Positions 353 to 61,470 of a stretch of 64,000 nucleotides of DNA are shown here, in pieces; position 1 is the stretch's first letter, and every line of letters starts with the position of its first letter. This DNA comes from an uncultured Bacteroidota bacterium (GTDB taxonomy: Bacteria > Bacteroidota > Bacteroidia > Bacteroidales > JAAUTT01): contig CAWJWO010000003.1 in assembly GCA_963846585.1 (NCBI GenBank), forward strand, positions 140,505 to 204,504, read 5' to 3'. The notes below the pieces were generated by a model. That model was not told the origin of the DNA, searched no databases, and worked only from the letters and a program-made list of their open reading frames with translations. The translations under genes and the position numbers were made by a program.

Positions 353-359
353 TGAAAAA

Positions 360-520
360 GACATGAGACATGAGACATGAGACATGGGAGGTGGGACCTG
401 GGACGTGCGTGGTACATGAAAATATGTGAATTAAAATAAATATTTTTGATCACTTCATTACTTCATCTCTTCATCACTTCATCACTTTTATCCTGGTTCC
501 TGGCTCTTGTCTCCTGGTTC
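360..520. repeat. Composite short-tandem-repeat block: (GACATGA)x~4 at 360-386, degenerate GGGACNT at 387-418, (CTTCATCA)-like x~4.5 at 451-487, (CTGGYTC)x4 at 491-520
   Basis: Read directly in the tatC-lptB spacer. Confidence 0.9.
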
Positions 521-551
521 TATTAAACTTAATATTATTAAATAATATAAC

Positions 552-1280
552 ATGATATTACGCACTGACAACCTGGTTAAAAGATACCGTTCACGATTGG
601 TAGTGAAAGGAGTTTCAATTGATGTTAACCAGGGAGAAATAGTAGGGCTGCTTGGCCCGAACGGAGCCGGTAAAACTACTTCATTTTATATGATTGTCGG
701 ATTAATTCCTCCCAATGAAGGTAAAATATATCTGAATGATGTTGATATAACCAGGGAACCTGTTTACAGGAGGGCTCAGTTAGGAATTGGTTATCTGGCA
801 CAGGAAGCAAGCGTTTTCAGGAAATTAAGTGTGGAAGATAACATCTTTGCAGTTCTTGAAATGACTAAAATGAATAAACATGAACGAATAGAAAGAACTG
901 AATCGTTGCTGACAGAATTTGGCCTCTTAAAGATCCGCAAGAGCTTTGGCTATCAGTTATCGGGCGGGGAAAGACGTAGGACCGAAATAGCCAGGGCACT
1001 GGCAATCGACCCTAAATTTATACTTTTGGATGAACCTTTTGCAGGAGTTGACCCTATAGCAGTAGAGGATATACAATCAATTGTTTCAAAATTAAAGGAA
1101 AAAAATATAGGTATATTAATAACTGACCACAACGTTCATGAAACCCTTTCGATAACTGACAGAGCCTATTTGTTATTCGAAGGTTCCATCCTTAAGGCCG
1201 GAACTTCTCACGATCTTGCAGAGGATGAGCAGGTCAGGAGAGTGTACCTTGGCAAAAGTTTTGAACTAAGAAACTATTAG
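552..1280 (+). CDS. lptB: LPS export ABC transporter ATP-binding protein LptB
   Basis: 242 aa. Walker [13 protein letters not shown] signature LSGGERRR, Walker [13 protein letters not shown]-loop TDHN. Size and overall pattern are typical of LptB. Confidence 0.88.
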
Positions 1281-1284
1281 TATA

Positions 1285-1497
1285 GTTGCTGGTTGTTAGT
1301 TGTTAGTGGATAAAAGTTTATTCGTTTAATTAGAATTCCATAAACATATAAACCTTATTAACCTTATTAACCTTATTAACCTTATTAACCTTATTAACCT
1401 TATTAACCTTATTAACCTTATTAACAATTTTCAAATTATTCCCATGCATTATTCTATTGTCTCCTATGCACCATGCACTAAGCACTATGCACTATTT
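1285..1497. repeat. Composite STR block: (GTTGTTA)-like at 1285-1309, (AACCTTATT)x8 at 1351-1425, (GCACTAW)x~4.5 at 1464-1495
   Basis: Read directly. The 9-mer array is 8 perfect copies. Confidence 0.95.
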
Positions 1498-2665
1498 CTG
1501 TTTTCCTTTGAGAAAGTAAATTACCTATTACCATTATAAAAATTGTTATAAATATAATCTGAGTAATAAGCCCTTCACTCATGAAAGGCAATTTCAGGCC
1601 TGCCGGAATACTTAAAAATAATAAAATGGTGATGAGTCCCCGTGGTGCAAAATAAAAAAGCGGAGCAAAAGGTTTATGCAATATAAATCTAAGGAATAAC
1701 CCTCTCAATAAAAATATTGAACAACTTATCGATACTGAAAAAATAAGGTTTTGAAGGTTAAGTAAAGCTACTATTGAAGTATAAAAGCCGAATATAAGAA
1801 AGAAAAAAGACCTGACTAAAAATGTTAGCTCTCCTGTAATTTGTTTAAATGCCCTTAAATTAATGTTGAAAGTTTTAAAATCAACATGATTTTTTATGTA
1901 ATCATTTTGAAAAAGAATGTTGTTGTTCATTATTAAACCAAATATCAGTACAACTATAAGTGAAGGCCAGTGAATAATGTTAGCTAAAACATAAATCAAT
2001 ACTACTAAAGTTATAATAATTACATATTTAACATGATGCCCTATTTTATGTAACATGTATGCAAGTCCAATACTTATTAATAATGCAAAAACAACTGATA
2101 CAATTACTTCAAAAATAAAGAGAACAAGTCCTTTCCCAATTGTTAACTCATTAAATAATAGAAAATTAAATAAAATAATACCAAATATATCGGAAACTGA
2201 ACTCTCATAAACTATAAACTCCCGGTCATTATTGTTAAGATTTGAAGCAGATGGAATTGCTACAGCTCCGCTAATAATACCGAAAGGTATAGCATTTATC
2301 AAAGCCATTTTAAAAGGGTAATGCATAAATGAATAAAGAAAAATAGCAAATAAATCTATAAAAAGCACTAATAATATTGCTGCAGAGGCAAATGATGTTT
2401 GTATTAAAGATCGTTTCTCCCTGCTTATAGTAAGATCCAAACTTCCTTCAAGAACTATTAAAATTAAACCCAAAGTACCCATTAACTGAAGCAGGATTGA
2501 AAAATCAGGTATTTTCAGGTTAAGATGAGCTGAAATATATCGTAACCCAATCCCCAGGGTCATTAATAATATAACTCCCGGAATTTTAGAAAATTTACTG
2601 GTTACCTCAAAAATATAAGCAAGCAATACTATAAAACAAAGAATAGCAAGTATATAGTAGTCCAC
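1478..2665 (-). CDS. Cation:proton antiporter (Na+/H+ exchanger family) membrane protein
   Basis: 395 aa, hydrophobic throughout with about 11-12 TM segments, resembling the CPA-type sodium/proton exchanger family. The last 5 codons and the TAG stop lie in an ATAGTGC repeat array. Confidence 0.7.
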   Translation of the reverse strand: MDYYILAILCFIVLLAYIFEVTSKFSKIPGVILLMTLGIGLRYISAHLNLKIPDFSILLQLMGTLGLILIVLEGSLDLTISREKRSLIQTSFASAAILLVLFIDLFAIFLYSFMHYPFKMALINAIPFGIISGAVAIPSASNLNNNDREFIVYESSVSDIFGIILFNFLLFNELTIGKGLVLFIFEVIVSVVFALLISIGLAYMLHKIGHHVKYVIIITLVVLIYVLANIIHWPSLIVVLIFGLIMNNNILFQNDYIKNHVDFKTFNINLRAFKQITGELTFLVRSFFFLIFGFYTSIVALLNLQNLIFSVSISCSIFLLRGLFLRFILHKPFAPLFYFAPRGLITILLFLSIPAGLKLPFMSEGLITQIIFITIFIMVIGNLLSQRKTEIVHSA

Positions 2666-2743
2666 ATTATTTTAAATTAGTTTAAATACACCCTATAAAG
2701 TTATTAATTGTTTTTTATTGCAGGTTATCCCTATATGAAAAAT

Positions 2744-3736: not shown

Positions 3737-3742
3737 TAAATA

Positions 3743-3952
3743 GAGCCAGGAACCACGAACCAGGAACCAAGACTTGAGTTAGAAGTTTTTAGTTAATGAA
3801 AAGTTTATGCATTTATGCGTTTATCGGTTTATCGGTTTATCGGTTTATAAGGCTTATAATCTAAAATATATAACCAACAATCCGTCATCAGTAATCAGTA
3901 ATTGGTAATTTTCATATACACATCTGCACATTTTCACATCTGCACATTTTCA
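3743..3952. repeat. Composite STR block: (CCAGGAA/CCACGAA) at 3743-3773, (GGTTTATC)-like at 3803-3860, (CAGTAAT) at 3886-3910, (CATCTGCACATTTTCA)x2 at 3921-3952
   Basis: Read directly downstream of the MBL gene. Confidence 0.9.
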
Positions 3953-4247
3953 AATTTATTGATATCGTCCGTCAATTAAAAACTTCAATCTGTCAAATTT
4001 CTGAAGGTCAAAAATATAGCATAATATATTATATATTAGTTATTTAAAAATATTTGTTAGATATTTAAAAATAATCTTCGTAAAATAAAACTTATTATAT
4101 CAAATTTTAGTATACAATACTGAAACATCACCCGTAATCTCCAATTACCTCCCCGGGAATTAGCTAAATACAAATAGATTACAGAATTGCACATATAGCA
4201 AAATAATTGATTGATACTATAAACTTATTCTAACAAATAATATCTAA

Positions 4248-5570: not shown

Positions 5571-5666
5571 ATAGTGCATAGTGCTTAGTAATCAGAATCC
5601 TATACAACTTTTACAACTTTTACAACTATTAATTCAATTGCATTTTATTTAGTTGTTAGTTGCAGG
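5571..5666. repeat. Composite STR block: (ATAGTGC)-like at 5571-5595, (TACAACTTT)x3 at 5603-5630, (TTAGTTG)x2 at 5649-5666
   Basis: Read directly in the convergent spacer between the Omp85-like and OmpA-family genes. Confidence 0.9.
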
Positions 5667-5692
5667 ATAAAAGTTATTAAGATATTAAGTGA

Positions 5693-7873
5693 TTATTCTA
5701 CTGATAGAACCTTAAACTCAGTTCTTCTGTTTTTCTGGTGTTCCTCTTCAGTGCATTTCACTCCTTTTGCACATTGGTTCAGCAGCATTGTTTCGCCATA
5801 TCCTTTTCCAATAATCCTGTCCCTGGCAATACCTTTAGAATAAAGGTATTCAGCAGCAGATTTAGCCCGTCTGTCAGAAAGTATCATATTTGAGGCTGCA
5901 GTTCCGCGTGAATCAGTATGTGACCGTAACTCTATCTTCATTTTTGGATATTTATTCATGATATCCAATAACTTGTCAAGTTCTTTTGCGGCATCGGGAC
6001 GAATATTCCATTTAGCCAAATCGTAATAAATATTCTCCAACTTTATAACATCCCCAACACAAAATATAGGGAAAGATTCGTTAATATCTGCATCTTTAAA
6101 CATTCCGCGGGTTGTAAGTTCAATTGTATTTGAATTACATTTACTGTCTTTAATATTAACATTCACATTAATTATATAATCTTTTTCAGCTTGTAAATCA
6201 AAAGAAAAGGCACCATTTACATCGCTGGATATTACCTTTTTTGAAGTGTCGGACTTATTAATCAGGGAAGCAGTTGCATTTGAAATTGGCTTATTATTAT
6301 CTGCAGAATAAACCTTCCCGTTCAAGTGAATTTTTAGTGCCCGTTTATTCATAGGTATATATATAGTATCTCTTTCTTCCAATTTTTCCCGGGTTATTTC
6401 AATTTTAGTTTCCTCATATTTTTCTCTGTTTACGTCAAACCTGAATAGTTTCATTGGTTTTATCACTAGGTTTGCTATACCTTCTGTATTACTAACATTT
6501 CTTTCCTGTTCAGTTCCGTCAGCAGAAATAATAATATTGGCAGAAGAAAGCGGTTGCATACTATTTGCATCATATACCTTAATTATATAATTCCGGGAAA
6601 TCCGCTTAATACTAAAAATATCATCATCACCAATGGCATTATACCTGTCAGAGCTTATGTAACCGTCCCTGCCTCCATTTTGGGTAATAAATCCGAAATC
6701 ATCAAAGCTTGTATTTATTGGATAGCCAGGATTAACAGGTTTTTCAAACCTGCCGTCCTTTGCCCGTGCTACAAAAATATCGAGCCCGCCTAATCCCGGT
6801 AAGCCATTAGATGCAAACCAAAGGTTGCCTTCATTATCGATAAAAGGAAACATTTCATTACCCTTTGTATTAATATCAGAGCCCAGATTTTCAGGTTTTC
6901 CCCAGGTTTTTTTACCAATGGAATCAATTATCTGATGAGATACATAAATATCAGTACCACCGTTTCCTCCCGGCATATCGGATGCGAAATAAAGATCCCT
7001 GCCATTAGAGCTAAATGCCGGGTGACCCACAGAATACTGATCGTTGTTAAAAGGCATTGGGGTCACATTTACCCATTTATGCAGGTTATTATTCCAGGTG
7101 GCCTGAAATAATTTTAATTTATTTATTCCTTCATTACTTTTCCGAAAACGCCAATGGTAAAAATTGCTTCGTGTAAAGATTATTGTATCCTGATTTTTAC
7201 TGAAAGTAACAGGCCCTTCATGATAAATTGAATTAAGCTCTTTGGAGAAAGGGATCGCGTTTACAGAATCAGGATAAGCAAAATAAAGATCAAGAAAGGA
7301 TGTATACGTCCAGTTATAAAAAAGCCTTATCATTGAGAACTGATTCCTGGCACTAACAAATACGAGCCCTTTTCCGTAATAAGCAGGACTAAAATCAGAA
7401 ACATCAGAACAAAATGGCTCCTTTTGAATAATATAGGAAGTTGAATCCTTATAAAAAGATGATAAATTCCGGTAGGCCATAGTAAACTCTTTACCCCTGG
7501 GATCACTTGGTTCCAACTCATCGTATTTCTTATACCAGGTTATAGCTTTTTCATATTTACCATTACGCGACAATGCTTGTGAATAATACAAAACATACTC
7601 GTGTCTGACATTTGCAGTATCAACCAGAACAGCATAGCATCTCTCTGCATTCTTACTGTCGTTAATCCGTCTGTAGGAATCTGCCAGTTTCCCGTAAATT
7701 TCATAACTATGAGGATAAGTGTTTAAAAGCTGCTCATACATTGGAATAGCCGTATGATAGTCGAACCGGTTATAGTATCTGTCAGCCAGTTTCTTTTTCA
7801 TTACAAAATCCTGGGCTGAAATGTATGAACAAAGAAGAAAACATATAATTGTTAAAGGAATTTTCATAATCAT
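5693..7873 (-). CDS. OmpA-family protein with N-terminal TPR-like and TolB/WD40-like beta-propeller regions
   Basis: 726 aa with a signal peptide. C-terminal OmpA/MotB peptidoglycan-binding motif (IELRSHTDSRGT...NMILSDRRAKSAAEYL...NRRTEFKV). Starts 8 nt downstream of the PorP/SprF gene. Confidence 0.85.
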   Translation of the reverse strand: MIMKIPLTIICFLLCSYISAQDFVMKKKLADRYYNRFDYHTAIPMYEQLLNTYPHSYEIYGKLADSYRRINDSKNAERCYAVLVDTANVRHEYVLYYSQALSRNGKYEKAITWYKKYDELEPSDPRGKEFTMAYRNLSSFYKDSTSYIIQKEPFCSDVSDFSPAYYGKGLVFVSARNQFSMIRLFYNWTYTSFLDLYFAYPDSVNAIPFSKELNSIYHEGPVTFSKNQDTIIFTRSNFYHWRFRKSNEGINKLKLFQATWNNNLHKWVNVTPMPFNNDQYSVGHPAFSSNGRDLYFASDMPGGNGGTDIYVSHQIIDSIGKKTWGKPENLGSDINTKGNEMFPFIDNEGNLWFASNGLPGLGGLDIFVARAKDGRFEKPVNPGYPINTSFDDFGFITQNGGRDGYISSDRYNAIGDDDIFSIKRISRNYIIKVYDANSMQPLSSANIIISADGTEQERNVSNTEGIANLVIKPMKLFRFDVNREKYEETKIEITREKLEERDTIYIPMNKRALKIHLNGKVYSADNNKPISNATASLINKSDTSKKVISSDVNGAFSFDLQAEKDYIINVNVNIKDSKCNSNTIELTTRGMFKDADINESFPIFCVGDVIKLENIYYDLAKWNIRPDAAKELDKLLDIMNKYPKMKIELRSHTDSRGTAASNMILSDRRAKSAAEYLYSKGIARDRIIGKGYGETMLLNQCAKGVKCTEEEHQKNRRTEFKVLSVE

Positions 7874-8819: not shown

Positions 8820-9095
8820 TTACCGGTTTATTGTGATGTATCCTATTTTTTCCTTTTCACCGTTATTGAAATTTATTATGTAGAAATAAGTTCCGTTTGG
8901 TAAATTATTGTTAATCAGTATTCCGGCATTTGCAACTCCATTCCAGTCGTTTTGATAATTTTTACTTTCATATACCTTATCACCCCATCTGTTGAATACC
9001 TGAAGTGTAATTTGGAACTGTTCAGCTCCTTTTATAACGAAATAATCGTTTATACCATCACCGTTGGGCGAGAAACCTTCAGGAATGAAAACCTT
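8820..9095 (-). other. T9SS type-B C-terminal sorting domain (coding sub-region of the giant adhesin)
   Basis: The last ~91 aa, KVFIPEGFSPNGDGINDYFVIKG...NRWGDKVYES...WNG...LPNGTYFYII...GYITINR, match the gliding-motility-associated C-terminal domain pattern. Confidence 0.8.
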
Positions 9096-12000
9096 CTGTG
9101 GCGTAACTATTATATTAACATTGGCCGCTGATGAATAAACTATCCCATCCGATGCAGTCCAGATAAATGAAGTCATACCTGTAAAGTCCTTTAAAGGAGC
9201 AAAAAATAAAATATTAAGGTTATCCTTCAAAATTTCCTGACCTATTGTAACATCAAGGCTATTAAGGGATAATGTACCATTAGCAGGTAATGAACCGATC
9301 TGAATTTTTACAAGTGTGTCATTATTAACATCTGTGAATTTTGAAGTAAACTGTGCAGACTGGAACTGAAGTGTCGTATTTTCTACTATTGTATCGACTA
9401 TATCCGAAATAACCGGTACGTGCATGATTGAATTATAACCTGTGTCATTTAATACCACTTCTCCCGTTACACATTGTGGAGGAATGGCATTATTACAAAC
9501 CTGGTAGGTGATGGTATCCATGCCAATATAGGTTGAGTCAGGAGAGTAAACCAGCAGTCCGGCCCCACTTATACTTGCCTTTCCATGGTCAGGCCCGCTT
9601 ATGATTGAATAGGTTAACGTATCTCCATCAATATTGGAAATATTATTTACAATATTGATTGTCTTTGCTCCTCCTTTTGATGGAATGGTGTCAATAATTG
9701 TTGGCGAAATAAGAATCGGAGTATGTTTTACCGGGATAACAATTATATTCACACTTGCATTCGATATGGAATAATATTTTCCGTCATAAGCATTCCATGC
9801 AAAGTTTGTACTGCCATACCAGTTATTATTTGGAACAAATGAAAGATTACCGATATCATAAATATTTATTGCTTCGGATATAACTACAGGGGAACCGGAT
9901 AACAACAGTTTACCGTTTTCAGGCAAACTCATAATTTCAATACTTACAAGACTATAGGCATTCGAATCGGAAAATGAAGATGTAAAGTCATTGGAAACAA
10001 ATTGAAGTGTATCGTTTTCCAAAATCGTCCTGGAAATATTTTTCAATGTAATACAAGGTAAAATTGAATCTTTCATAGCCAACCTGGCAGCAGATTCGCA
10101 CCCTCCAATTGTTTGGCCCGCGTAATATGTTAAACCGCTTATAAGGACAGTTGTATCCGCAATAAAAGTCCCGCCTGCAGAGGACATGTACCAGGTAATA
10201 TCCGATCCAAGTACAACAAAATCTGATAATTTTGGATTAGCCTCACCGCAAAATGTTTGGGGCGATACGCCTGTTGGTGCCGCCGGAGTTAATGGTTGGG
10301 CATTAATCACTGCATTATTTGATGACAAAGAGCTACAACTGCTGTCATTAGTTACTTTAAAGGTATAAGCCTTATTGGCTGCCAAATTACTAAAGATTGA
10401 CGTCGGGCCTGATCCTGTAATCTTTGTTGATTCTTCCGATTCTGTAATTGTCCATGCACCGGTAGCTGGAAGTCCTACCAATCCAACACTACCTGTTGAA
10501 ATAGTACAAGTAGGTTGAATTAAAGTATCAATAAGTGGAATTCCCGGTGTTTGTTTAACATTTATGGTAACCGAATCACATGCCGAATTATATTTACATG
10601 GCGCTCCATCTTCATATCGGCCATAATATGTTGTCGTTGTATCAGGATTCACTGCGACATTATTGCCAGTGCCGGTAAGTATGCCTCCACATGATTTAGT
10701 ATACCATTTTATAGTTTCATCTGCTCCTCCCCCACCTCCATTTAAAGTTAAGGTGGTTGTATCTCCTTGACAAATACTGGTTGAACCGGCAGTGGCCGAA
10801 GTTGGATCGGCCGAAAGGCGATTAACTGTTATAGTTACAGTTTTACATTCCGAAGAATAATTACACAAGGTAGTATCCTCATAACGACCGTAATAGATAG
10901 TATTGGTATCAGGGTTTACAAGCAGGTTATTCCCTGTACCAACGAGTATACCACCACATGATACAGTGTACCAAGCGATTATTTCGCCAGTACCACCACC
11001 GCCACCTTGGAGGTTTAGGGTGGTACTTCCACCAATACATATAGTATCTGCAGCAGCCGTTGCTGCGGTTGGGTCGGCCGATTTCTGATCAACAGTTATA
11101 GCAATAGATTTACAGGCCGAAGCATAGTCACATTGGGCCCCGTCTTCATATCGTACATAAAAAATAGTTGTAGTATCAGGGCTTAAAATCACAGTACGAC
11201 CTGTATCTGACAGTAATCCCCCACATATACCTGCATACCATTTTATGGTTTGGTAGTTACCGCCACCTCCGCCTATCAATGTTAGTGTTGTATTGCTTCC
11301 ATTACATATAGTTGCTGAACTTGCAACAATTGATGCAGGGTCAGCCGATTGCTGATTTACTGTTATTGTTACCCGGGCACATGCCGAACTATAATTACAC
11401 GGGGATCCGTCTTCATATCGTCCATAATATGTAGTAGTCGTGTCAGGAGTTACCAAAAGATCATTACCTGTCCCCACAAGTATGCCACCACACGATACAG
11501 TGTACCATTTGATTACTTCACCGGTGCCCCCGCCTCCACCGTTAAGTGTTAATATTGTAATGTCGCCAGTGCATATAGTGTCTGAACTGGCGGTGGACGA
11601 TGTTGGATCTGCAGAAATCTGATTAACCGTTATGGTTATCGTGTCACAGGCTGAAGCATAGCTACACGGTAAACCATCTTCATATCTTCCATAGTATGTA
11701 GTCGTTATGGTTGGGCCAACCACCAGGTTATTCCCCATACCTGCCAGGTTACCACTACATGAACCAGTATACCATTTGATTACTTCTCCGGTACCTCCAC
11801 CTCCCCCATTCAGGGTTAAAATGGTGTTATCCCCGTTACAGATAGTATCCGCGTTGGATGTAGCCGAGGTGGGATCAGCCGATGTCTGGTTTACCGCGAT
11901 AGTTATTGCTGCACAGGCCGAAGTATAGTTACACGGGATTCCATCTTCATAACGTCCAAAGTAGGTAGTATTAATAGTCGGACTTACAACCAGGTTATTA

Positions 12001-15000
12001 CCTGTACCGGCCAGTGTACCTCCACACGATCCGGTGTACCATGCAATAGATTCGCCAGTGCCGGCTCCTCCACCACTAAGGGTTAAGACAGTGTTATAAC
12101 CGTTACATATAGTATCAGCGCTTGCAGTAGCAGAACCGGGATCCGCCGAAGTCTGGTTTACCGTGATTGTTATTGTTGCGCATACCGAATTATAATTACA
12201 TGGCGTGCCATCCTCATAACGTCCATAATATGTAGTTGAAATAGCTGGGCTTACTGTCAGGTTATTTCCAGTGCCTGCCGGTGTACCTCCACATGATCCG
12301 CTGTACCATTGAATCACTTCACCGGTTCCACCTCCTCCACCGTTAAGTGTTAATATTGTGGTTCCTCCGTTACAAATCGTATCAGTACTTGCACTGGCAG
12401 TACCAGGATCTGCCGAAGTCTGGTTTACCGTGATGGTTATTGTTGCACATGCTGAATTATAATTACATGGGGCACTATTTTCATACCGTCCATAGTAGGT
12501 AGTTGTTACAACCGGGCTTACCTCAAGGTTATTGCCTGAACCTGCGAGTGTTCCGCCACATGAACCTGTATACCATTTTATTGATTCAGATTCTCCACCA
12601 CCACCTCCGTTAAGCGTTAACACAGTGTTTCCTCCATTACAAATAGTTGTCGAACTGGCTGTGGCTGAAGCCGGATCTGCAGATTTCTGATTTACAGTGA
12701 TGGTTATTGTTGCACATGCTGAATTATAATTACAAGGTGCGCCATCTTCATACCGTCCATAATAGGTAGTTGTTATAGCAGGATTTACGTTCAGGTTATT
12801 CCCTGTTCCTGCTAATGTACCTCCACACGATCCAGTGTACCAATGAATTATTTCGCCGGTACCTCCGCCTCCACCATTAAGAGTTAAGATAGTATTACCT
12901 CCATCACATATAGTGGTTAAACTGGCAGTTGCAGAAGTTGGGTCAGTCGATTTTTGATTCACTGTAATAGTCACTGTGGCACATGCAGAATTATAGCTGC
13001 ATGGAGAACCATCTTCATAGCGTCCGTAATATTTAGTTGTAGTGATTGGGCTCACTATTATATTATTGCCAGTGCCGGCCAAAGTGCCTCCACACGATGC
13101 TGTATACCAGGTGACTACTTCACCGATACCACCACCTCCACCATTAAGTGTTAATGTAGTGCTTCCCCCATTACAAATAGTTGTTGAAGTTGCAGTTGCA
13201 GAAGCCGGATTGGCCGATTTCTGGTTTACAGTTATAGTTATTGTTGCACAAGCTGAATTATAATTACATGGTGCACCATCTTCATAGCGTCCGTAATATG
13301 AAGTTGTTACAACCGGATTTACTACCAGGTTATTCCCTGAACCAGCGAGAGTGCCACCACACGATGCTGTATACCATTTTATAGATTCAACTGCTCCACC
13401 ACCGCCTCCATTTAGAGTTAAGGTAGTGTTTTGTCCATTACATATTGTTGAAGAGGTTGCAGTTGCCGAGGTTGGATTGCCCGATTCCTGGTTTACAGTA
13501 ATAGTGGTTGCCGAAGAATTCGCCGATGCACATCCACCACTTGTTACTACGGCACGGTATTGTGTAGAAGTATTTAAATTGGTTGCTGTAAGTGTATTAG
13601 TTGTATTTGCAATATCCACCGGTGTAACCCAATTATCTATGCTTGATTGCCATTTGGTTACAGAGCCTGTATTACCTGACAATGTTAAACCTGTACTATT
13701 AATACCTGCACAAACGGTTGTACCCCCGGTCACAGTTCCGCCAACTGATGCAGGGCTTACTATAAATGAAGCTCCCGGGCTGGTATAATCGCAATTGGAT
13801 GAATTGCTCGTGTTAAGACGATATTGATATGTTCCGGTAGCAGTAGTACCTGAGATTGTCATACCTGAAGTTGTCGCGTTGGTATAAGTGGTTCCTGCAG
13901 GTGTTCCGTTTACTACATTTCCCCATGCAGATCCGTTATAATATTGCCACTGGTAAGTGGGAATACCTGTTCCTCCGCTTATATTACTGCTAACTACCGT
14001 GCTCCCACCGATACATATATTACTATTCGTGAATATTGGTGCAGTAAGTGTTGGATCTGCATCTACAGTGACAATAACAGTATTGGATGTTGCAGTAGTG
14101 CATCCACTCCCGGCGGCTTTTACCAAACATTGATACTGATAGCTTCCTGCATTTGAAATACCTGCTACAGAAAAAGTAGTACTTGTTTTTCCTGTATAAG
14201 TACTACCGGCCGGAGTACCATTAACCACATTACCCCAGGAAGAACCATTATAATATTGCCATTGATAAGTCAGGGAAGGTGTACCTCCATTGCCTGCAAT
14301 TGTCATGTTGGCTGAAGTACCTCCTGTACATATACTTGCAGGGCTTAGAGGTTGGGTTGAAACGGATGGGTCGGCATCAACAGTAATTGTTACAATATTT
14401 GATGTTATTTGTGTACAAACAGGATTAGTAATTTGCACCACCAACTGGTATGATTGGGCACCTGTTGCTGTAGTTCCACTAACGGTCATACTTGCAGTAG
14501 TACTGTTGGCATAGGTGCTACCGGCCGGTGTACCATTAACTACATTTGCCCATGTTCCGCTATTATCATACTGCCATTGATATGTATAGCCAATAGCTGG
14601 TACACCAACAACCGTCGCTGCTGTTAAAACAGAACTTCCACCGGCACAGATTGCAGAATTTGATGCGGAAGGCTGGGTTGAAATAAGTGGAACATAAACT
14701 GTCGCGCAGCTGGATGTTGCCGGATTACAATCGCTGCCAGTTGCAGAAACTATTACTTCGTAATAAGTTGTTTGAGTTAATAAAGCAGTGGTATAATTAC
14801 TGCTTGTTGCGCCAGCTATAGGAGTCCATGAGCCTCCGCAACCCGTCGTATTGGAATACCATTGATAATTAAGTGACGGGGTACCACCTGTTGCTGTTAC
14901 AGATAATGTAGTGGTAGTGCCACTGCAAATGGTTGTAGATGTAGCAGGTTGTACAGTTATTGTTGGTTCAGCTATAACACTTACTGTTACCGGATTAGAT

Positions 15001-36909: not shown

Positions 36910-36910
36910 T

Positions 36911-41414: not shown

Positions 41415-41426
41415 TGCAGGATTTCT

Positions 41427-42191: not shown

Positions 42192-42201
42192 TTGATTGGA
42201 A

Positions 42202-43321: not shown

Positions 43322-43388
43322 ATTATTTTATATTATAAATCCTTATATTATCCTTCCGTTTATAAAGTTAAATTTTTCATAGGTTACA

Positions 43389-43607
43389 TTATTTTAATAT
43401 GAATTGCGATAACACTATAATTAATACAATACAAATAAATAATATCCAGGCATATGGACTTGTAAAATTTACAGTCCAACCCAATAGTGGATAAATTTTG
43501 GGAACAATTAACCCAGGGTCTTTACGATTATAGTAAAATGGGCCTTTCCAATTACCCGGGTCTTTCCTCATCGTATCAAGGATTTCTTTTTCAATTTTAA
43601 TTTTCAT
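43389..43607 (-). CDS. DUF5808-like small membrane protein
   Basis: 72 aa. The motif WKGPFYYNRKDPGLIVPK....GWTVNF resembles the DUF5808 signature. Confidence 0.55.
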   Translation of the reverse strand: MKIKIEKEILDTMRKDPGNWKGPFYYNRKDPGLIVPKIYPLLGWTVNFTSPYAWILFICIVLIIVLSQFILK

Positions 43608-44218: not shown

Positions 44219-44496
44219 TGGTTATCTTTTTTAAGTTTAACAATTTTATATATAAGGTCATCCAACATATTACGCACAGTCGGATAACTTAATTTTAACT
44301 TTTGTGACATAATTTTTAAGCTGCCGCTGCACTGGATAAAATCCATAATAAACTCCTGTTCCTGCTGCTCCAGTTGCAGCAGGACAGGTAACTCATAGGT
44401 TCCGCTTATGGTGGTTTGACATGAATCACAAACGAGGCTTTGCACATTTAATGATGATTTGCAACTTGGACAAATCACAGGCAACTTCTTATCCAT
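44215..44496 (-). CDS. DUF2089-family protein (zinc ribbon + HTH)
   Basis: 93 aa. CPSC...(11)...CDSC zinc ribbon followed by an HTH-like segment, LKLSYPTVRNMLDDLI. First gene of the 6-gene operon. Confidence 0.65.
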   Translation of the reverse strand: MDKKLPVICPSCKSSLNVQSLVCDSCQTTISGTYELPVLLQLEQQEQEFIMDFIQCSGSLKIMSQKLKLSYPTVRNMLDDLIYKIVKLKKDNQ

Positions 44497-44654
44497 ATTT
44501 TCATTTTAATTTTCACAAATATAAACACGAAATTCATAAATACAAATAAATTATTAATATTATTTAATATACATTTAATTATATTTATATATTACTAAAT
44601 AAATTTGAAATCAGACCGGTTTTTATATCATTTCCAATAACTATCAAGAAACAA

Positions 44655-48684: not shown

Positions 48685-48920
48685 AGATGTGCAGATGTGT
48701 AAATTTACAGATGGTGAATAATTACTTATTACTAATGACAAATGAAAAGAGAGCCAGGAACCAAGAACCAGGAACCAAGACTAGGAACATGTAACTTGTA
48801 ACCTGTAACCTGCAACCAGTAATATATTAATACATAAACCTTATAGACCTTATCAACCTTATCAACCTTATCAACCTTATAAATTGAATAAACGAAAATA
48901 CTTTATAAACTTCATAAACG
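48684..48920. repeat. Composite STR block: (CAGATGTG-like) at 48684-48716, (CCAGGAACCAAGA) at 48750-48787, (TGTAACC/TGCAACC) at 48788-48823, (AACCTTATC)x~4.5 at 48837-48881, (CATAAAC-like) at 48901-48920
   Basis: Read directly downstream of the GT-C gene. Confidence 0.9.
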
Positions 48921-48934: not shown

Positions 48935-51280
48935 ATGAAAACTATCCTTCTATCTTTATTGACTGTTTTATTTATTGGATCAGTAAATGGCCAAAATGCT
49001 AAAAAATTTTTTAAAACAGGTGACGAGTTTTATAAAGCAGGAAATTTCAAGGATGCTATTAATCAATTTACCAATGCAATAAGCGTAAATCCGGAATATA
49101 AGGAAGCTTATTTCATGAGAGGCAAAGCTTATATAATTTTGAAAAATTTCGATAAAGCTGTGGATGATTTAAATCGTGCAATAATTTTCGAACCACAGAA
49201 TGAAGAGATATTTTATAACCTTGGGGTAACTTATAACAATCTTAATAAATATAAGGAAGCTCTTGATGATTTAAATCATGCAACATTCCTGAATAAAAAA
49301 TATATTCCGGCTTACCAGGAAAAAATAATCAGTTTGATGGCCCTGGATCAAAATTACAGTGCTTTAAAAGTTAGTGACACTGCTCTTGCTCTTGAAGGAA
49401 GTGCCCGTAATTATTACTTATACGGATTGGTAACACAAAATCTGAATTCTGCGCAAAAAGCAGAATGGGCCTTTACAAAAGCAATAAAGGAAGATAAAAA
49501 ATATATCGATGCATATGTTGCATTGGCCATATTGCAGGCGAATTATCTGAATAAGCCGGAAGAAGCTATGGTGCATTGTAATGAAGCACTTAAAATGGAA
49601 CCAAATTCGATATCAGCCCTTATTGCCCGAAGCAAAGTATATATAAAAATACTTGATTACCGTAATGCCATTGACGACTTATCAAAGGCAATAGTTATTA
49701 ATCCAGACAACGAAGATTTATTCCTGCTTCGTGGAATATATTATCAGGAATTTAAGCAGCATCAGAATGCAATAGACGATTTTAATAAAGTGATTGATCT
49801 GGATCCTAAAAATGCCGAGGCCCTATACAAACGTGCCAATTCCTATGAAGAAATATCTGATTTTAAAGGAGCTATAAAGGATTATCAAACACTGGTCCAA
49901 CTATCCGAATATGATGTAAAAGCAAAAAAATTATTAAAACAATCAAAGGATAGGCTATATGAACTTAAAAGAGAATCTAACAACCCTGTAATAACAATAC
50001 AGGATCCGGCTCCAAAAGACAAAAAAATCATTGAAATACCTAATAATAAGCATGTTGTCCAAATAAAGGGTTATGTAACAGATGAAAGTGATCTAAGCTA
50101 TATAAGGATTAATAATAAAAATATAACCTATAAAAATATTGACGGACAGAACCAATTTATAGCCGGTTTAAATATTGACAGCCTTGAATCAATATATATA
50201 TCTGCCTCTGACGTTTATAATAATGTTGAAAAGATGAATTTTATTATAAAAAGAACTGAAACTAATCCGCCTAAAGTAACAATATTAGCACCTTTGGCTT
50301 CCGATAACGGTGAAATTTATCTTGACAACAATGATGCCGTACTTTATGTGGAAGGGAAAATAACTGACGAAAGTCCTATAAAATCAATAATAATCGATGA
50401 TGTTTCTGCAAGTTTTGCAATTGATGAATTAAATCCAAAGTTTTCCGCCAATATAAATATTTCCAACAAAAATAAATTCACTGTAACAGCAACTGATATT
50501 TATGGAAACGGAATACCGGTCACTTTCAGGATTAACCGTGAAAATGCCTCTTTATTCGGATCAAACCCTATGGGTAAGACCTGGGTGATTTTTATCGAAA
50601 ATTCCAATTACCGTACATTTGCAAGCCTTGAAGGGCCAACTAAAGATGTTACCCTTATGAAAACTGCACTGGCTAAATACCAGGTTAATAACTTTGTTCA
50701 CAAAAAAGACCTTACAAAGGAACAAATGGAAAAATTCTTTTCAATTGAGTTAAGAGACCTGGTTAAAAGTAACCGCGTAAATACTTTATTGATATGGTAT
50801 GCCGGCCATGGTAAGTTTATTAACGAAACAGGCTATTGGATTCCAATTGATGCTAACCGCGACGATGAATTCACATATTTTAATATTAACTTTTTGAGGG
50901 CATCGTTACAATCCTATTCAACAGTTACACATAAACTTGTAATTTCAGATGCCTGCGAGTCGGGACCGACATTTTTCCAGGCTATGCGTTCCTCCTTAAA
51001 GGAACGAAGTTGCGATGACTGGCAGGCAACCCGGCTTAAATCGTCACAGGTATATTCCTCAGCCGGATATGAACTTGCCCAAGACTATTCTAAATTTACG
51101 AAAGCAATTGCCAATTTATTAGCTAGTAATCCGAATGCTTGTATTCCAATAGAAAGCATAGTTTTAAAGGTAAATTCATCATTACCCCAGGATAGCCAGC
51201 AAAAACCAAAATTTGGCAAAATCGCGGGCCTTGCTGATGAAGACGGAACTTTTTTCTTTATTGCCAGGGAAAGAAGATAG
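48935..51280 (+). CDS. Secreted TPR-repeat / Ig-like / caspase (peptidase C14) domain protein
   Basis: 781 aa. Signal peptide, about 8 TPR units (aa 20-340), beta-sandwich-like middle region, and a C-terminal caspase His/Cys dyad (LLIWYAGHGKF ... KLVISDACESGPTF). Confidence 0.8.
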   Translation: MKTILLSLLTVLFIGSVNGQNAKKFFKTGDEFYKAGNFKDAINQFTNAISVNPEYKEAYFMRGKAYIILKNFDKAVDDLNRAIIFEPQNEEIFYNLGVTYNNLNKYKEALDDLNHATFLNKKYIPAYQEKIISLMALDQNYSALKVSDTALALEGSARNYYLYGLVTQNLNSAQKAEWAFTKAIKEDKKYIDAYVALAILQANYLNKPEEAMVHCNEALKMEPNSISALIARSKVYIKILDYRNAIDDLSKAIVINPDNEDLFLLRGIYYQEFKQHQNAIDDFNKVIDLDPKNAEALYKRANSYEEISDFKGAIKDYQTLVQLSEYDVKAKKLLKQSKDRLYELKRESNNPVITIQDPAPKDKKIIEIPNNKHVVQIKGYVTDESDLSYIRINNKNITYKNIDGQNQFIAGLNIDSLESIYISASDVYNNVEKMNFIIKRTETNPPKVTILAPLASDNGEIYLDNNDAVLYVEGKITDESPIKSIIIDDVSASFAIDELNPKFSANINISNKNKFTVTATDIYGNGIPVTFRINRENASLFGSNPMGKTWVIFIENSNYRTFASLEGPTKDVTLMKTALAKYQVNNFVHKKDLTKEQMEKFFSIELRDLVKSNRVNTLLIWYAGHGKFINETGYWIPIDANRDDEFTYFNINFLRASLQSYSTVTHKLVISDACESGPTFFQAMRSSLKERSCDDWQATRLKSSQVYSSAGYELAQDYSKFTKAIANLLASNPNACIPIESIVLKVNSSLPQDSQQKPKFGKIAGLADEDGTFFFIARERR

Positions 51281-51455
51281 TGCATAGTGAATAGTGCATA
51301 GTGCATAGTGCATAGTGCATAGTAATTTGTGCTTAGTATATACAATATAACATTTTAACTGATGGCATTTATTGCTTTGGCCCCAGGCCTCTGGCCCCTG
51401 ATCCCTGGCCCCTGGTCCCTGATCCCTGGCCCCTGGTCCCTAGCCCCTAGCCCCC
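51277..51455. repeat. (ATAGTGC)x~8 at 51277-51338 and a C-tract array (CCCTGRYC-like)x~10 at 51379-51455
   Basis: Read directly. The first array supplies the TAG stop of the caspase gene (51278-51280). Confidence 0.95.
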
Positions 51456-51458
51456 GAC

Positions 51459-51502
51459 ACTCTGACGAGCATAACGGAGAAGTTGGCTTTTTCTTATTGA
51501 CA
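51459..51502 (-). repeat. Truncated inverted copy of the ~57-bp module
   Basis: The reverse complement reads TGTCAATAAGAAAAAGCCAACTTCTCCGTTATGCTCGTCAGAGTG. It matches the module up to GTTATGCTCGTCAGA and then runs into the C-tract array. Confidence 0.7.
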
Positions 51503-55303: not shown

Positions 55304-55304
55304 G

Positions 55305-55532
55305 TGGGGGGGGGTAGGGATTAGTGGCCAGGGGTTAGTGGTTAATTGCAGGTTACAGGATAAAAGTGATGAAGTGATGAAGTGATGAGGTGATGAAGTG
55401 ATTAAGTTTATAAGATTTCCCATAAACTTTATAAACCTCATAAACCAATTAGTAATTTGTAATCAGTAATTTGTAATTTGTAATTTGTCATCTGCACATC
55501 TGCACATCTGCACATTTTCACATCTGCACATT
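55305..55532. repeat. Composite STR block: G-tract words at 55305-55341, GCAGGTT at 55346-55360, (GTGATGAA)x~5 at 55365-55406, (CATAAAC-like) at 55421-55446, (AGTAATTTGTAAT-like) at 55448-55488, (CATCTGCA)x~5 at 55489-55532
   Basis: Read directly. The block fills the whole spacer between trxA and the LOG-family gene. Confidence 0.9.
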
Positions 55533-55537
55533 ATTTT

Positions 55538-55855
55538 TTACAGTAAAGCTTCCAGTTTAGAAGAAATTACATTTTTTGGGACTGCCCCAACCTGTTTGTC
55601 AACTATTTTTCCATTTTTAAAAAATAAAATAGTAGGGATGTTACGAATACCAAATTTGGCAGACACTTCAGGGTTACTGTCTACATCAAGTTTAGCAACT
55701 TTGGCACGTCCTTCATATTCCTGCCCGATTTCTTTTACCAAAGGTCCAACCATACGGCAAGGGCCACACCATTCTGCCCAAAAATCTACCAGAACAGGCA
55801 CTTCCGAATTAATAACAACTTCATCAAAGTTGCCATCAGTTACTTCAATAGTCAT
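55538..55855 (-). CDS. trxA: Thioredoxin
   Basis: 105 aa with the canonical WAEWCGPCR active site. Confidence 0.92.
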   Translation of the reverse strand: MTIEVTDGNFDEVVINSEVPVLVDFWAEWCGPCRMVGPLVKEIGQEYEGRAKVAKLDVDSNPEVSAKFGIRNIPTILFFKNGKIVDKQVGAVPKNVISSKLEALL

Positions 55856-55938
55856 ATATTAATTTTTAAGTTATTATTTATTCATTAATAGTTATTGTCT
55901 GTAAAATAACCAAAAATAATCATTTTTTTTACTAACAA

Positions 55939-59541: not shown

Positions 59542-59549
59542 TATATTGT

Positions 59550-59647
59550 TAATTGGTAATTGATTATTAAAACTATTACTTCATCACTTCATCACTTCAT
59601 CACTTTTATTTCATTTGTCATCAGTAATTAGTAATTAGTAATTACCT
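59550..59647. repeat. Composite STR block: (TAATTGG/TAATTGA) at 59550-59568, (CTTCATCA)x~3.5 at 59578-59607, (CAGTAAT/TAGTAAT)x~4 at 59619-59647
   Basis: Read directly upstream of dnaE. Confidence 0.9.
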
Positions 59648-59849
59648 AACAACCAAGAATCAGCACCTGACAACTAATCCCCAAAGTTACATAATAAAGC
59701 GCCTGTATTATTCATTGTTAATAAATAAAGACTGTAAATTTGTTTGGTTTCTGATTAGAAAATATAACATAATCATAATATAAATCTTAAATCATTTTGT
59801 TTTATATTTCGTATCTTAGTGGTCACAAAATCAGTTACATTTTTTGCCT

Positions 59850-61214
59850 ATGAAAATTCATATCATTGCTATTGGAGGTAGTGCGATGCATAATCTTGCA
59901 ATAGCTTTGCATGAAATGGGATATGACGTTACCGGCTCCGATGATGAAATATTTGAACCCTCATTTTCCCGATTGAAAAAACATGGTTTGTTGCCTGAAC
60001 AATTAGGTTGGTTTCCGGGCAAAATTACAAGTGATATCGATGCAGTCATTTTAGGAATGCATGCCCTGGAGAATAACCCTGAACTAATAAAAGCCAGGCA
60101 GTTGTGGCTTAAAATTTATTCCTACCCTGAGTATCTCTTCAACCAGACAATGGATAAGAAGAGGGTGGTTATAGCGGGAAGCCATGGTAAGACTACCATT
60201 ACATCGATGATTATGCATGTGCTCAAACATTGCGAAAGGGAATTTGATTACATGGTAGGGGCAAGTATTGAGGGATTCGAAACCATGGTAAGAATTTCTG
60301 ATTCATCTCCGGTTGCAATTTTTGAAGGTGATGAATACTTATCTTCCGCCCTGGACCGACGTCCTAAATTTCATTTATACAGGCCGCATATAGCTTTAAT
60401 TTCAGGTATTGCATGGGACCATATAAATGTTTTCCCGGATTTTGACAGTTATAAACGGCAATTCAGGGAATTCATTGAATACATTGAGCCAAACGGAACC
60501 TTATATTACTTTGATGGCGACCCGGTGTTAAAGGACATTGTCGAAAGGAGCATAAACCCCATTGATATAATTCCTTATAAGGAACACCTTCATATGATCC
60601 GTGACCATCATAGTTACCTTCTTACACAATCAGGATCATATAAGTTTCACTTATTGGGCAAACATAATTTACTAAATGTTGAAGGAGCCAGGTTAATCTG
60701 CAAACAACTGGAAGTTACGGATGTAGAGTTTTATAAAGCCATTTCGACTTTCCAGGGAGCTTCAAAACGGCTTCAGGTAATTCATTCAACTGATAATTCA
60801 TCTGTATTTATGGATTTTGCCCATGCTCCTTCAAAAGTTAAAGCTACAGTGGAGGCATTAAAGACCCATTACCCTGAACGTAAACTGATAGTATGCCTTG
60901 AATTACATACTTATAGCAGTCTGAATAAAGATTTTATCGGTGAATATCATGGTACTCTGACGGGTGTTGAGCATGCTGCAATATTTTATAACCCTGAAAC
61001 CGTAAAACATAAACGTTTGGAAAAAATATCCTCAAAAGACATTCAAAAAGCATTTGACAGGGATAATCTTGATGTAATAACGGAAACTTCTGAATTGGAA
61101 GCATGGATAAAAAAATCAGCTTTTCAGGATTCGAACCTTTTATTTATGAGTTCAGGAAATTTTGGAGGGCTGGATGTTCATGGTATATTAAAGGGACTAG
61201 GGGCTAGGGACTAG
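59850..61214 (+). CDS. mpl: Mur-ligase family UDP-N-acetylmuramate:tripeptide ligase (Mpl-like)
   Basis: N-terminus IIAIGGSAMHNLAIAL, P-loop GSHGKTTITSM. ATG at 59850 (the ORF track starts at TTG 59844). The last 6 codons and the TAG stop lie in the GGGRCTA repeat array. Confidence 0.75.
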   Translation: MKIHIIAIGGSAMHNLAIALHEMGYDVTGSDDEIFEPSFSRLKKHGLLPEQLGWFPGKITSDIDAVILGMHALENNPELIKARQLWLKIYSYPEYLFNQTMDKKRVVIAGSHGKTTITSMIMHVLKHCEREFDYMVGASIEGFETMVRISDSSPVAIFEGDEYLSSALDRRPKFHLYRPHIALISGIAWDHINVFPDFDSYKRQFREFIEYIEPNGTLYYFDGDPVLKDIVERSINPIDIIPYKEHLHMIRDHHSYLLTQSGSYKFHLLGKHNLLNVEGARLICKQLEVTDVEFYKAISTFQGASKRLQVIHSTDNSSVFMDFAHAPSKVKATVEALKTHYPERKLIVCLELHTYSSLNKDFIGEYHGTLTGVEHAAIFYNPETVKHKRLEKISSKDIQKAFDRDNLDVITETSELEAWIKKSAFQDSNLLFMSSGNFGGLDVHGILKGLGARD

Positions 61215-61323
61215 GGGCTAGGGGCTAGGGACTAGGGACTAGGGGCTAGGGACCAGGGACTAGGGACTAGGGACCAGGGACTAGTTGTTGGTTGCAGGTT
61301 ACAGGTTGCAGGTTGCAGGTTTT
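61193..61323. repeat. (GGGRCYA)x13 heptamer array at 61193-61284, followed by (GCAGGTT/ACAGGTT)x~5 at 61285-61323
   Basis: The 13 heptamers were counted by hand. The array begins inside the last codons of mpl. Confidence 0.95.
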
Positions 61324-61429
61324 AGATTGGTTTAATAAGTTACTATCAAAAAGTAACCGTACCCTGAGCGGAGTAGAAGGGTACAACATTTACAAACTAA
61401 TATTCTCTAATAACATTATAGATATTAAC

Positions 61430-61470
61430 ACATACAACTAACAACCAACAACCAACAACTAACAACTAAA
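61430..61470. repeat. (CAACTAA/CAACCAA)x~5 heptamer array
   Basis: acatacaactaacaaccaacaaccaacaactaacaactaaa, read directly. Confidence 0.85.

Follow-up and report, generated by a model that had tools for sequence, protein, structure and literature searches.

The window analysed here is a stretch of 64,000 nucleotides (nt) from an uncultured Bacteroidota bacterium (contig CAWJWO010000003.1, positions 140,505 to 204,504), and most of its intergenic spacers carry head-to-tail arrays of short words, chiefly of 7 to 9 nt. The gene map, drawn from long open reading frames (ORFs) and cross-checked against the gene calls on public contigs, has a Pfam content typical of Bacteroidota, with PorP/SprF, a CHU_C giant adhesin, DUF3857/3858 and TMEM260-type genes. 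Among the matches listed, which are species representatives, the best for DnaE are to Chitinophaga and to Bacteroidia metagenome-assembled genomes (MAGs), at ~65% identity; since no listed representative comes closer, the lineage is uncultured and poorly represented. Together the gene content and the DnaE matches bear out the Bacteroidota-type genome proposed in a first-pass annotation made from the letters alone. The account favoured here, held with somewhat better than even confidence, is that the arrays are long simple-sequence repeats resembling the short tandemly repeated repetitive (STRR) sequences of cyanobacteria, that they have recently proliferated in one uncultured Bacteroidota lineage by copying and slippage, and that they are tolerated only outside genes and promoters.

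Tandem Repeats Finder (TRF) returned 92 rows for the window, which reduce to 53 arrays of period 5-11 (filter: unit of 5-11 nt, at least 2.9 copies), compared with 0-4 in 20 shuffles; a stricter detector of our own gives 28 arrays against 0-1. Heptamers dominate, with 31 arrays of period 7, nine of 8, six of 9, three each of 5 and 6, and one of 10. Non-coding DNA makes up 8.9% of the window, yet it holds 1498 of the 1900 array bases (79%), and most of the remaining array bases lie in ORF starts or ends that have been over-extended through an array (the N-terminus of a 1098-amino-acid ORF at 51362; 54767; the LOG gene extension at 55304-55441). A further example is the spurious ORF 55485-55862, which is situated opposite the true thioredoxin gene. 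Arrays are present in about 16-19 of the 25-27 spacers, in convergent, divergent and co-directional spacers alike and near stops, near starts and in mid-spacer alike; 40 of 49 arrays lie less than 150 nt from the end of a flanking gene, 16 of them within 30 nt, and their gene neighbours are housekeeping genes (malate dehydrogenase or MDH, DnaE, LptB, RibD). The first-pass annotation had listed individual arrays, all of which are present at or within a few bases of where it placed them; its count of 18 of about 25 spacers agrees with the present one, and its statement that the arrays are confined to non-coding DNA holds.

Independent assemblies, both ENA and short-read Logan, agree to the base on about 50 arrays. 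The same arrays stand at the same coordinates in at least four independent assemblies from different samples (with 100% identity for contigs L004, L087 and L216), and every array is shorter than one short read. Because independent long-read and short-read assemblies agree, the arrays are not assembly artefacts, and the assembly artefact that the first-pass annotation had named among the refuting outcomes is excluded.

The arrays draw on a shared vocabulary. Allowing for rotation and reverse complement, the 31 heptamer arrays form 14 same-word pairs where 0.44 are expected (maximum 4 in 2000 simulations), an approximately 30-fold excess of word sharing over chance, and 27 pairs with one mismatch against 8.9 expected. 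This excess substantiates the earlier claim of a shared vocabulary. A pattern search for RGAACCA yields 26 matches, compared with 0.26 expected, at eight array loci, two of which (491-521 and 29426-29498) extend the earlier list for GAACCAG; the 8-mers CTTCATCA and CATCTGCA occur at three loci each. Words of one family differ by single changes and by unit length, as in AACCAGG/AACCAAG/AGCCAGG, in AACCTGC/AACCTGT, and in the related units AACCTTATT, AACCTTATC, CATAAACCT and GATAAACC. This set of words is open-ended, for in the 9.4 kb upstream of the window (contig L085) new words stand beside old ones. The array-bearing features are as follows, from TRF unless another source is given.

331-521: TatC-LptB spacer, a composite of five arrays (ATTACTG, AGACATG, GACGTGG, the 8-mer ATCACTTC and TCCTGGC, the reverse complement of RGAACCA); its junction ATCACTTTTATCCTG is common to 23592-23640 and 55349-55405 (TRF and pattern search).
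1283-1495: convergent spacer with three arrays, TAGTTGT x3.6, AACCTTATT x8.8 (1347-1425) and CTATGCA x4.6; this third array overlaps the minus-strand gene's stop codon, and the spacer shows no structure (RNA fold z -0.7).
2743-2810: a perfect GCAACCT x9.7 array midway along a divergent spacer, with a small edge indel in strain L086.
3742-3957: composite starting 6 nt past a stop codon, with RGAACCA, GTTTATSS 8-mers, AATCAGT and CACATCTG/CACATTTT (TRF and pattern search); its block 3878-3955 is 79% identical to 55446-55523 and has an inverted copy at 48677-48745.
5571-5695: convergent spacer filled by three arrays, ATAGTGC, TACAACTTT x3.2 and AAGTTATT.
22217-22285: TTACTGT x9.9 in a divergent spacer of 359 nt; the orthologous spacer of the relative L089 has 118 nt and is array-free.
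23545-23640: a AAAGTTTAT array and one of RGAACCA, which follows the stop of the minus-strand DUF4154 gene in sense orientation (TRF and pattern search); in L089 the two genes on either side overlap.
29426-29498, minus strand: RGAACCA x10 abutting the MDH stop codon, with strain-variable copy number (TGGTTCT x10 at 29429-29498; TRF and pattern search).
30500-30542: GCAACCT x2.7, then CAACTAA x4, upstream of the start of an FNR-like gene and, in the between-species spacer comparison, distal to the promoter block conserved upstream of MDH.
31205-31432: quasi-palindromic convergent spacer with outer arms RGAACCA/TGGTTCY, inner arms of GATTTRA type and AGAGGAC between (inverted repeats I7, I8 and I10); RNA fold -78.5 kcal/mol, z -8.6; the RGAACCA arms are also found in the relative L091.
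38248-38314: GTTACAG x9.6 (the reverse complement of AACCTGT) abutting a stop codon, 84% similar to the array at 2743-2810.
39360-39576: composite of RGAACCA, TAGTTGT, TTAGTGC, a loop with TAAACRAA 8-mers, and GCACTAW; the TTAGTGC/GCACTAA arms form a foldback (inverted repeat I5, 27 nt, 96% complementary; fold z -6.1).
48677-48920: composite of the inverted CATCTGCA block, RGAACCA, AACCTGT, AACCTTATM 9-mers and ACTTCATAA (TRF, spacer BLAST and alignment).
51277-51454: ATAGTGC x6.7, overlapping the stop codon of a TPR-caspase gene and strain-polymorphic, then TGGCCCC x11.
55310-55531: LOG-thioredoxin spacer, almost wholly arrays, with GGGRYTA, GGTTRCA, AAGTGATG x5.5, CATAAACCT, AATTTGT x6 and CATCTGCA x5.4; its blocks are common to 446-502, 3878-3955 and 61256-61305.
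59578-59644: ACTTCATC x3.5 and AGTAATT x3.1 upstream of dnaE.
61192-61469: AGGGACT x13.3 (61192-61284), GGTTGCA x4.6, a gap and ACAACTA x5.1, upstream of tRNA-Glu (TRF; inverted repeat I6); the AGGGACT array begins 22 nt inside a Mur-ligase ORF (61192-61214) and supplies its last seven codons and stop codon.

Public gene calls start the 1098-amino-acid Y_Y_Y/SpoIIE regulator inside the TGGCCCC array (51362-51499), with an N-terminus reading ...PGPWSLIPGPW.... Repeats of other kinds are also present. A non-tandem dispersed repeat of ~68 nt lies at 29283-29350 and 36907-36974 (84% identity), each copy directly after a stop codon; the copy at 36907-36974 belongs to a 70-nt inverted repeat (36934-37003 / 37105-37174) in a spacer, 36910-37201, with a fold z of -7.3. 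This repeat looks like a separate family resembling repetitive extragenic palindromes (REPs) or MITEs (miniature transposable elements with inverted repeats). The giant adhesin-like gene on the minus strand (8820-21980, 4386 amino acids) adjoins the PorP/SprF and an OmpA/TPR gene. Its domains are of Ig, cadherin and PKD type, it carries a CHU_C tail for type IX secretion, and at 11377-13505 a 267-bp (89-amino-acid) unit stands in eight tandem copies with 73% identity.

Insight into how the arrays change came from strain contigs carrying the window's proteins, namely contig_26872 (310 kb) of ENA ERZ25039501, ERZ25039473 and short-read Logan contigs, which are 99.7-100% identical to the window. 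All indels of at least 7 nt between these strains and the window fall inside arrays and comprise whole units. Five arrays are affected:

29426-29498 (RGAACCA x10): +7 nt (AGAGCCA) in L001.
29426-29498 (RGAACCA x10): -21 nt in L003.
51291 (ATAGTGC): -7 nt in L215.
55364 (AAGTGATG): -8 nt in L213.
55472-55476 (AATTTGT): -7 nt in L213.
59623 (AGTAATT): -7 nt in L213.

At the first of these arrays L002 has a messy change of -4 nt. Other strain indels measure 1-4 nt, some of them in or beside arrays (29460-29466, 2740-2742, 55306, 59599-59604), and the isolated 1-nt changes outside arrays are probably long-read errors. In L214 the AGGGACT array carries substitutions exactly 7 nt apart, and runs of identical variant units (AGAGCCA x5) are consistent with local duplication. 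Whole-unit indels between near-identical strains indicate that the arrays are hypermutable by unit slippage, and the comparison of copy numbers between strains that had been suggested as a check thus comes out positive. Two further observations concern the same contigs. Single-base indels split the TMEM260 homologue of L001, the dnaE of L213 and the recQ of L085 in one ENA assembly only, the genes being intact in the window and in the other assembly; these are probably long-read consensus errors rather than pseudogenes. Seventeen substitutions between the window and the ERZ25039501 contig are clustered at 39481-40049, within the extracytoplasmic function (ECF) sigma-factor gene and its adjoining spacer, compared with one substitution in the neighbouring 19 kb; the cluster looks like a short recombination tract.

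More distant relatives with the same locus were found through MDH homologues, and three loci were informative. L089, whose MDH is 85% identical and whose GC content (34%) is the same as the window's, keeps the window's order of genes between RecX and the lipid-A deacylase; comparable arrays are absent over 21 kb of it, compared with 19 in the same stretch of the window lineage. Its spacers are also shorter (87 vs 229 nt, 103 vs 228, 1 vs 137 for the spacer at 23545-23640, and the 118 vs 359 listed above). L091 and L092 (MDH 88%) have arrays in the same spacers as the window, partly with words of their own; the words that L091 has in common with the window (AACCAGG, AAACCTTAT and CAACTAA/GCAACC) stand at other positions and in other orders. 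All three species conserve tttttcctaaattagcgcaat, a promoter-proximal block lying upstream of MDH, and the arrays are distal to it. Judged by these comparisons, the arrays are a recent, lineage-specific addition to the spacers, and the existence of a syntenic sister species that lacks them and keeps the promoter block argues that they are not needed for the flanking genes.

Slippage is not the only process at work. Spacer-versus-spacer BLAST and two alignments (A1 and A2) show that different spacers share not just words but the points at which one word passes into another. The junction ATCACTTTTATC[CT]TG joins a CTTCATCA array to an array of GGTTCCTG type at 473-521, 23592-23640 and, as the reverse complement, 55349-55405 (A1). 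A block of the form [GTAATYWG]n-[CATCTGCA/CATTTTCA]n is found at 3878-3955 and 55446-55523, and inverted at 48677-48745 (A2); the first two copies have an identical alternation of unit variants. Likewise, the passage from GGGRCTA to GGTTRCA at 55310-55359 is seen again at 61256-61305. Independent slippage on local seeds cannot give shared junctions, so arrays have also been copied between spacers.

Two parts of the window are free of arrays:

40059-44654: array-free segment with NTP_transf_2 and ParE-type toxin modules (toxin-antitoxin) and an ABC transporter/DUF2089 operon (TRF, domain content).
61633-64000: array-free island adjoining tRNA-Glu, with an integrase-like ORF (TRF).

Among spacers of at least 80 nt, none of the five in these two parts has an array, compared with 16 of the 20 elsewhere (hypergeometric p = 0.0024); the absence itself had been noticed in the first-pass annotation. 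The first segment (40.06-44.65 kb, 4.6 kb) is missing in L089, where RecX is followed directly by the ECF sigma-70 gene; by this comparison of gene orders it is an indel between species. Both it and the part at 61.63-64.0 kb are probable islands. The array-free islands and the absence of the segment from L089 support an accumulation of arrays with residence time, and the earlier suggestion that arrays mark long-resident DNA fits these data. Within the region 61558-64000, the tRNA-Glu(TTC) gene is followed by the integrase-like ORF (61781-62701), the C-terminal part of which looks degenerate, and then by two hypothetical genes.

Structural and functional tests of the arrays gave mostly negative results. 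In an Rfam scan of the whole window at gathering score, which covers the search of the words against Rfam that had been advised, tRNA-Glu was the sole match and no array was matched. Terminator-like sites (a GC-rich hairpin with a T run) are not enriched in the window (15 vs 10.3 +/- 3.4) and coincide with no array; the only strong one in a spacer, at 29349-29375, is outside the arrays, and a promoter consensus scan shows no enrichment in them. Hairpins were considered as a property of all spacers and rejected, as only 31205-31432 and 39344-39572 are strongly structured and most array-bearing spacers are unstructured (z -1.8 to +1.9). The sequence criterion for G3-tract quadruplexes (at least four tracts of G3+ at heptamer spacing) singles out two arrays only, AGGGACT x13.3 (61192-61284, plus strand) and GGGGCCA x11 (51378-51454, minus strand), both candidates for quadruplex formation; the other words have no G3 tracts. 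Two familiar repeat systems were also considered and set aside. Phase-variation contingency repeats do not fit arrays that are excluded from ORFs, have housekeeping neighbours and lie distal to a conserved promoter block, and a clustered regularly interspaced short palindromic repeat (CRISPR) array has repeats of 24-48 nt with unique spacers, whereas the units here are 7-9 nt and directly abut.

The orientation of the arrays is not random. When arrays of the same family within the window are compared, a word W tends to lie near the left edge of a spacer and its reverse complement near the right edge, with 49 concordant pairs among the 62 related ones (permutation p = 0.0004); put in terms of genes, the coding strand carries W after a stop codon and the non-coding strand carries it before a start codon. 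On inspection, the rule is followed by RGAACCA (8/8), TAGTTGT (5/5) and ATAGTGC (5/5). The comparison was widened from the window to loci L005-L084 and L093-L172, comprising 80 Bacteroidota DnaE loci and 80 metagenome loci. On the coding strand of the DnaE loci, arrays nearest a stop have G>C in a ratio of 36:11 and those nearest a start C>G in a ratio of 21:6; the corresponding counts at the metagenome loci are 33:10 and 19:12. Array-free spacers show only a faint version of this G/C trend, and none at convergent spacers. Where inverted pairs of the same word lie within 300 nt, the G-rich arm comes first at 25 loci and the C-rich arm at three, a count that is independent of strand and gene calls. 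Both G3 arrays of the window obey the rule, their G-rich strand being coding after a stop and non-coding before a start. RGAACCA, the most polar family of the window, is not G-rich, contrary to the G rule, and its edge geometry is not reproduced in other organisms (13 vs 19 on the contigs of the metagenome scan); because it is strictly polar and yet not G-rich, the compositional rule is a tendency and not a law. Stop codons in all frames were tried as a cause of polarity, which suits ATAGTGC and AGGGACT and fails for RGAACCA (none on either strand) and TAGTTGT (both strands). It could be proposed that short-unit intergenic arrays follow a polarity rule across phyla, with the G-rich strand running 5' to 3' away from the nearest gene and the G-rich arm always first in inverted pairs, because they have been selected or generated as bidirectional transcription insulators or foldback elements, but so general a rule seems to us improbable.

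Intergenic heptamer arrays have been known since 1990. Mazel et al. reportedly described the heptanucleotides of Calothrix, the STRR of heterocystous cyanobacteria, in that year, a report that PMC4692102 mentions, and the small dispersed repeats of cyanobacteria are said to have been treated by Elhai et al. in 2008. To our knowledge, neither the generator nor the function of intergenic heptamer arrays has so far been identified. Arrays of like anatomy occur in cyanobacteria, Xanthomonas, Beggiatoaceae and some Bacteroidetes, with no function demonstrated (PMC4679880, PMC4692102); a literature search for STRR or heptameric repeats in Nostoc returned nothing beyond these two papers and PMC4060949.

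Cyanobacterial STRR resemble the arrays of the window in being tandem heptamers of several families at many intergenic loci, with different words concatenated per spacer. They differ in host (heterocystous cyanobacteria as against a Bacteroidota bacterium with many 8- and 9-mers) and in words: CCCCAGT (STRR1), TTGGTCA (STRR2) and CAACAGT (STRR3) are all absent from the window, the nearest words being AGGGACT to CCCCAGT and TTACTGT to CAACAGT, each with one mismatch, and STRR2 being at least two mismatches from any. More generally, no word of the window equals STRR1-3, TAACTGA or GGGAATC in a direct comparison of words. The parallel with STRR that the first-pass annotation had drawn therefore stands for anatomy and for confinement to non-coding DNA; it does not extend to the words, since none equals a classical STRR unit. 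Its further remark that no equivalent had been described for Bacteroidota must be given up, because MacGregor 2015 reports TAACTGA and "other heptamer direct repeats" in the intergenic DNA of five Bacteroidetes (PMC4679880). The TAACTGA carriers include Gramella forsetii, Aequorivita sublithincola and Flexibacter litoralis, with 2-14 sets per genome; long heptamer arrays, with copy numbers reaching 43 across both groups, are recorded for several Bacteroidetes and Cyanobacteria, and close relatives of TAACTGA carriers lack the repeats and have shorter spacers (PMC4679880). A role of TAACTGA in translational regulation was only suggested, and a site for an RNA- or DNA-binding protein was proposed (PMC4679880). 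The window shares with that system the intergenic heptamer direct repeats in Bacteroidetes, the presence of other heptamers in the same spacers, and array-free relatives with shorter spacers. However, the TAACTGA study concerns a single word, rare in its Bacteroidetes, whereas the window has dozens of words in about two thirds or more of its spacers; TAACTGA repeats are forward-oriented a few nt upstream of start codons, a preference not seen in the window; and a TAACTGA array is absent from the window, where AATCAGT and ATTACTG come within one mismatch.

A match in geometry is provided by Rehm 2015, who described GGGAATC in Xanthomonas and GGGGA(C/T)T in Nostoc, G-rich on the coding strand after stops and on the non-coding strand before starts; G-quadruplex effects were proposed, the functional role being still to be elucidated (PMC4692102). 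Those repeats, like the ones described here, are intergenic heptamers 0-50 bp from ORFs with the same stop/start strand geometry, paired inverted copies and length variation between relatives, and their absence from plasmids is counted as a further likeness. They differ in that each genome has just one word, G-rich and quadruplex-forming, whose preferred number of copies is four, whereas only two of ~50 arrays in the window have G3 tracts and the vocabulary is broad. The widest class is that of long simple-sequence repeats with units of 5-11 nt, for which, as later papers summarise the survey by Mrazek, Guo and Shah (2007), heptamers are commonest and polymerase slippage is proposed (PMC4679880, PMC4060949). 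In these summaries such repeats are longer than chance, and units that are not a multiple of three are excluded from genes, as in the window; the survey as summarised carries no report of words or multi-array blocks shared between loci, which the window has. Both marks of the class, an excess over chance and length change by whole units, are found in the window. REPINs, MITEs and the small dispersed repeats of cyanobacteria are likewise short, intergenic, spread by copying, nested and capable of forming hairpins, but their ends and sequences are defined and their interior is not tandem, whereas the arrays of the window are tandem and no mobilising enzyme was found.

Heptamer arrays are sporadic among the 80 Bacteroidota DnaE loci (Sandaracinomonas, Emticicia, Aquirufa, Sediminibacterium and several MAGs). 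The words are particular to each of these genomes and often form foldback pairs that flank terminator-like hairpins, e.g. L041:3040-3230. The array (AACCAGG)n, queried at x2.7, is found in at least 120 contigs of Joint Genome Institute (JGI) metagenomes with 35-75% GC, and the window's other words are in none of the 80 such contigs that were fetched; thus the word AACCAGG is widespread, and the vocabulary as a set is lineage-specific. In a Chitinophagaceae MAG, thirteen 9-bp arrays resembling ACAGGAGCT lie within 2.7 kb, all on a single strand (L021:16749-19455); they probably encode a repetitive (collagen-like?) protein and are not intergenic arrays. The repeats of the window belong to a known kind, here at unusual density, and do not amount to a new system.

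Taken together, these observations suggest a process of three steps. In the first, which is seen directly between strains, arrays gain and lose whole units, as is characteristic of replication slippage; loops as small as 7-9 nt are expected to escape mismatch repair. In the second, to which the shared junctions point, arrays, often as blocks of two or three words, would be copied from spacer to spacer, with ectopic recombination, gene conversion and template switching as candidate routes; such copying would explain why unlinked loci and a sister species have words in common, and even a common alternation of unit variants. In the third, selection would remove the copies that disrupt a reading frame or a promoter, so that arrays would gather in the gene-distal and stop-codon-proximal parts of spacers and lengthen these by ~25-240 bp. 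The arrays would then be tolerated genomic passengers that are not needed for expression of the flanking genes, and recently arrived DNA would not yet be populated. Several points weigh against this account. Copying is deduced from sequence only, with no enzyme and no target site identified; the strain comparison uses metagenome assemblies, not single reads; and the part of the genome examined is the 64-kb window and its flanks. Two spacers form very long hairpins of mirrored arrays (31205-31432, z -8.6; 39344-39572, z -6.1). In two species the same convergent spacer keeps RGAACCA arms at either end, with a turned-over interior, which could reflect selection. Finally, a purely neutral model does not predict the edge polarity of the window, the G/C skew at 160 loci or the G-first inverted pairs.

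The polarity features speak for an insulating function. The arrays would then be functional cis elements that separate transcription units, the RNA leaving a gene being G-rich and C-poor and that entering it C-rich and G-poor, and they might provide bidirectional terminators with extended A-tract/U-tract arms, load Rho, or be bound by RNA- or DNA-binding proteins. Beyond the edge polarity, the skew in both sets of 80 loci and the 25 G-first pairs against 3, such a function would suit the position of 40 of the 49 arrays within 150 nt of a gene end, the two hairpin-forming spacers after gene 3' ends, the inverted arrays around terminator-like hairpins in other Bacteroidota (L041:3040-3230), and the G3-N4 quadruplex pattern of AGGGACT x13 and (GGGGCCA) x11 in the Rehm 2015 geometry (PMC4692102). 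It is nevertheless unlikely, because the syntenic sister species expresses the same operons without arrays, the words vary by spacer and by genome, and copy number varies between co-occurring strains. Moreover, arrays occur in all types of spacer, canonical terminators are not enriched, most array spacers are unstructured, and RGAACCA is neither G-rich nor constant in its geometry elsewhere (13 vs 19).

The hairpins and shared junctions could also be read as the arms or debris of small foldback mobile elements, MITE- or REPIN-like with arms made of tandem arrays, which would land in spacers and in one another's loops and shed an arm afterwards. The nested inverted arrays at 31205-31432, the foldbacks at 39425-39577 and 61282-61461, the inward orientation of all eight RGAACCA arrays and the composite blocks with the same junctions at unlinked loci are in keeping with this origin, same-word foldback pairs are common in other Bacteroidota, and a fixed arm order would be expected from descent from a master copy. 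We regard it as quite unlikely. The arrays have no reproducible ends and no convincing target-site duplications, only A/T-rich flanks at the eight RGAACCA arrays; word order and content vary by spacer, and palindromes make up only 2-4 of the ~19 spacers with arrays. The window and its flanks contain no transposase or RAYT-like gene, and since the G-first rule extends across unrelated words and phyla, common descent cannot explain it. That the arrays are assembly or sequencing artefacts of a MAG, as the 1-nt indels splitting the TMEM260, DnaE and RecQ genes on ENA contigs might suggest by pointing to long-read errors, is refuted for practical purposes by concordant independent assemblies, by arrays shorter than a short read and by similar arrays in related and unrelated genomes.

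The value of the window lies in the comparison set that surrounds it: an array-saturated species, co-occurring strains that differ by single units, a relative with part of the vocabulary, and an array-free syntenic sister from the same study. The set takes in ERZ25039501 contig_26872 as array-rich, ERZ25039472 contig_48303 as the array-free sister and GCA_964513035.1 / JGI 3300041809 as intermediate. Gene content and transcript ends across this set could separate a tolerated passenger from an insulator. The polarity seen across 160 unrelated loci merits a test at genome scale, and if the polarity rule is true, the array lineage and its array-free syntenic sister from the same samples would be a natural system for finding the responsible factor. 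The polarity rule and the comparison between array-rich and array-free sisters are what is worth following in these genomes.

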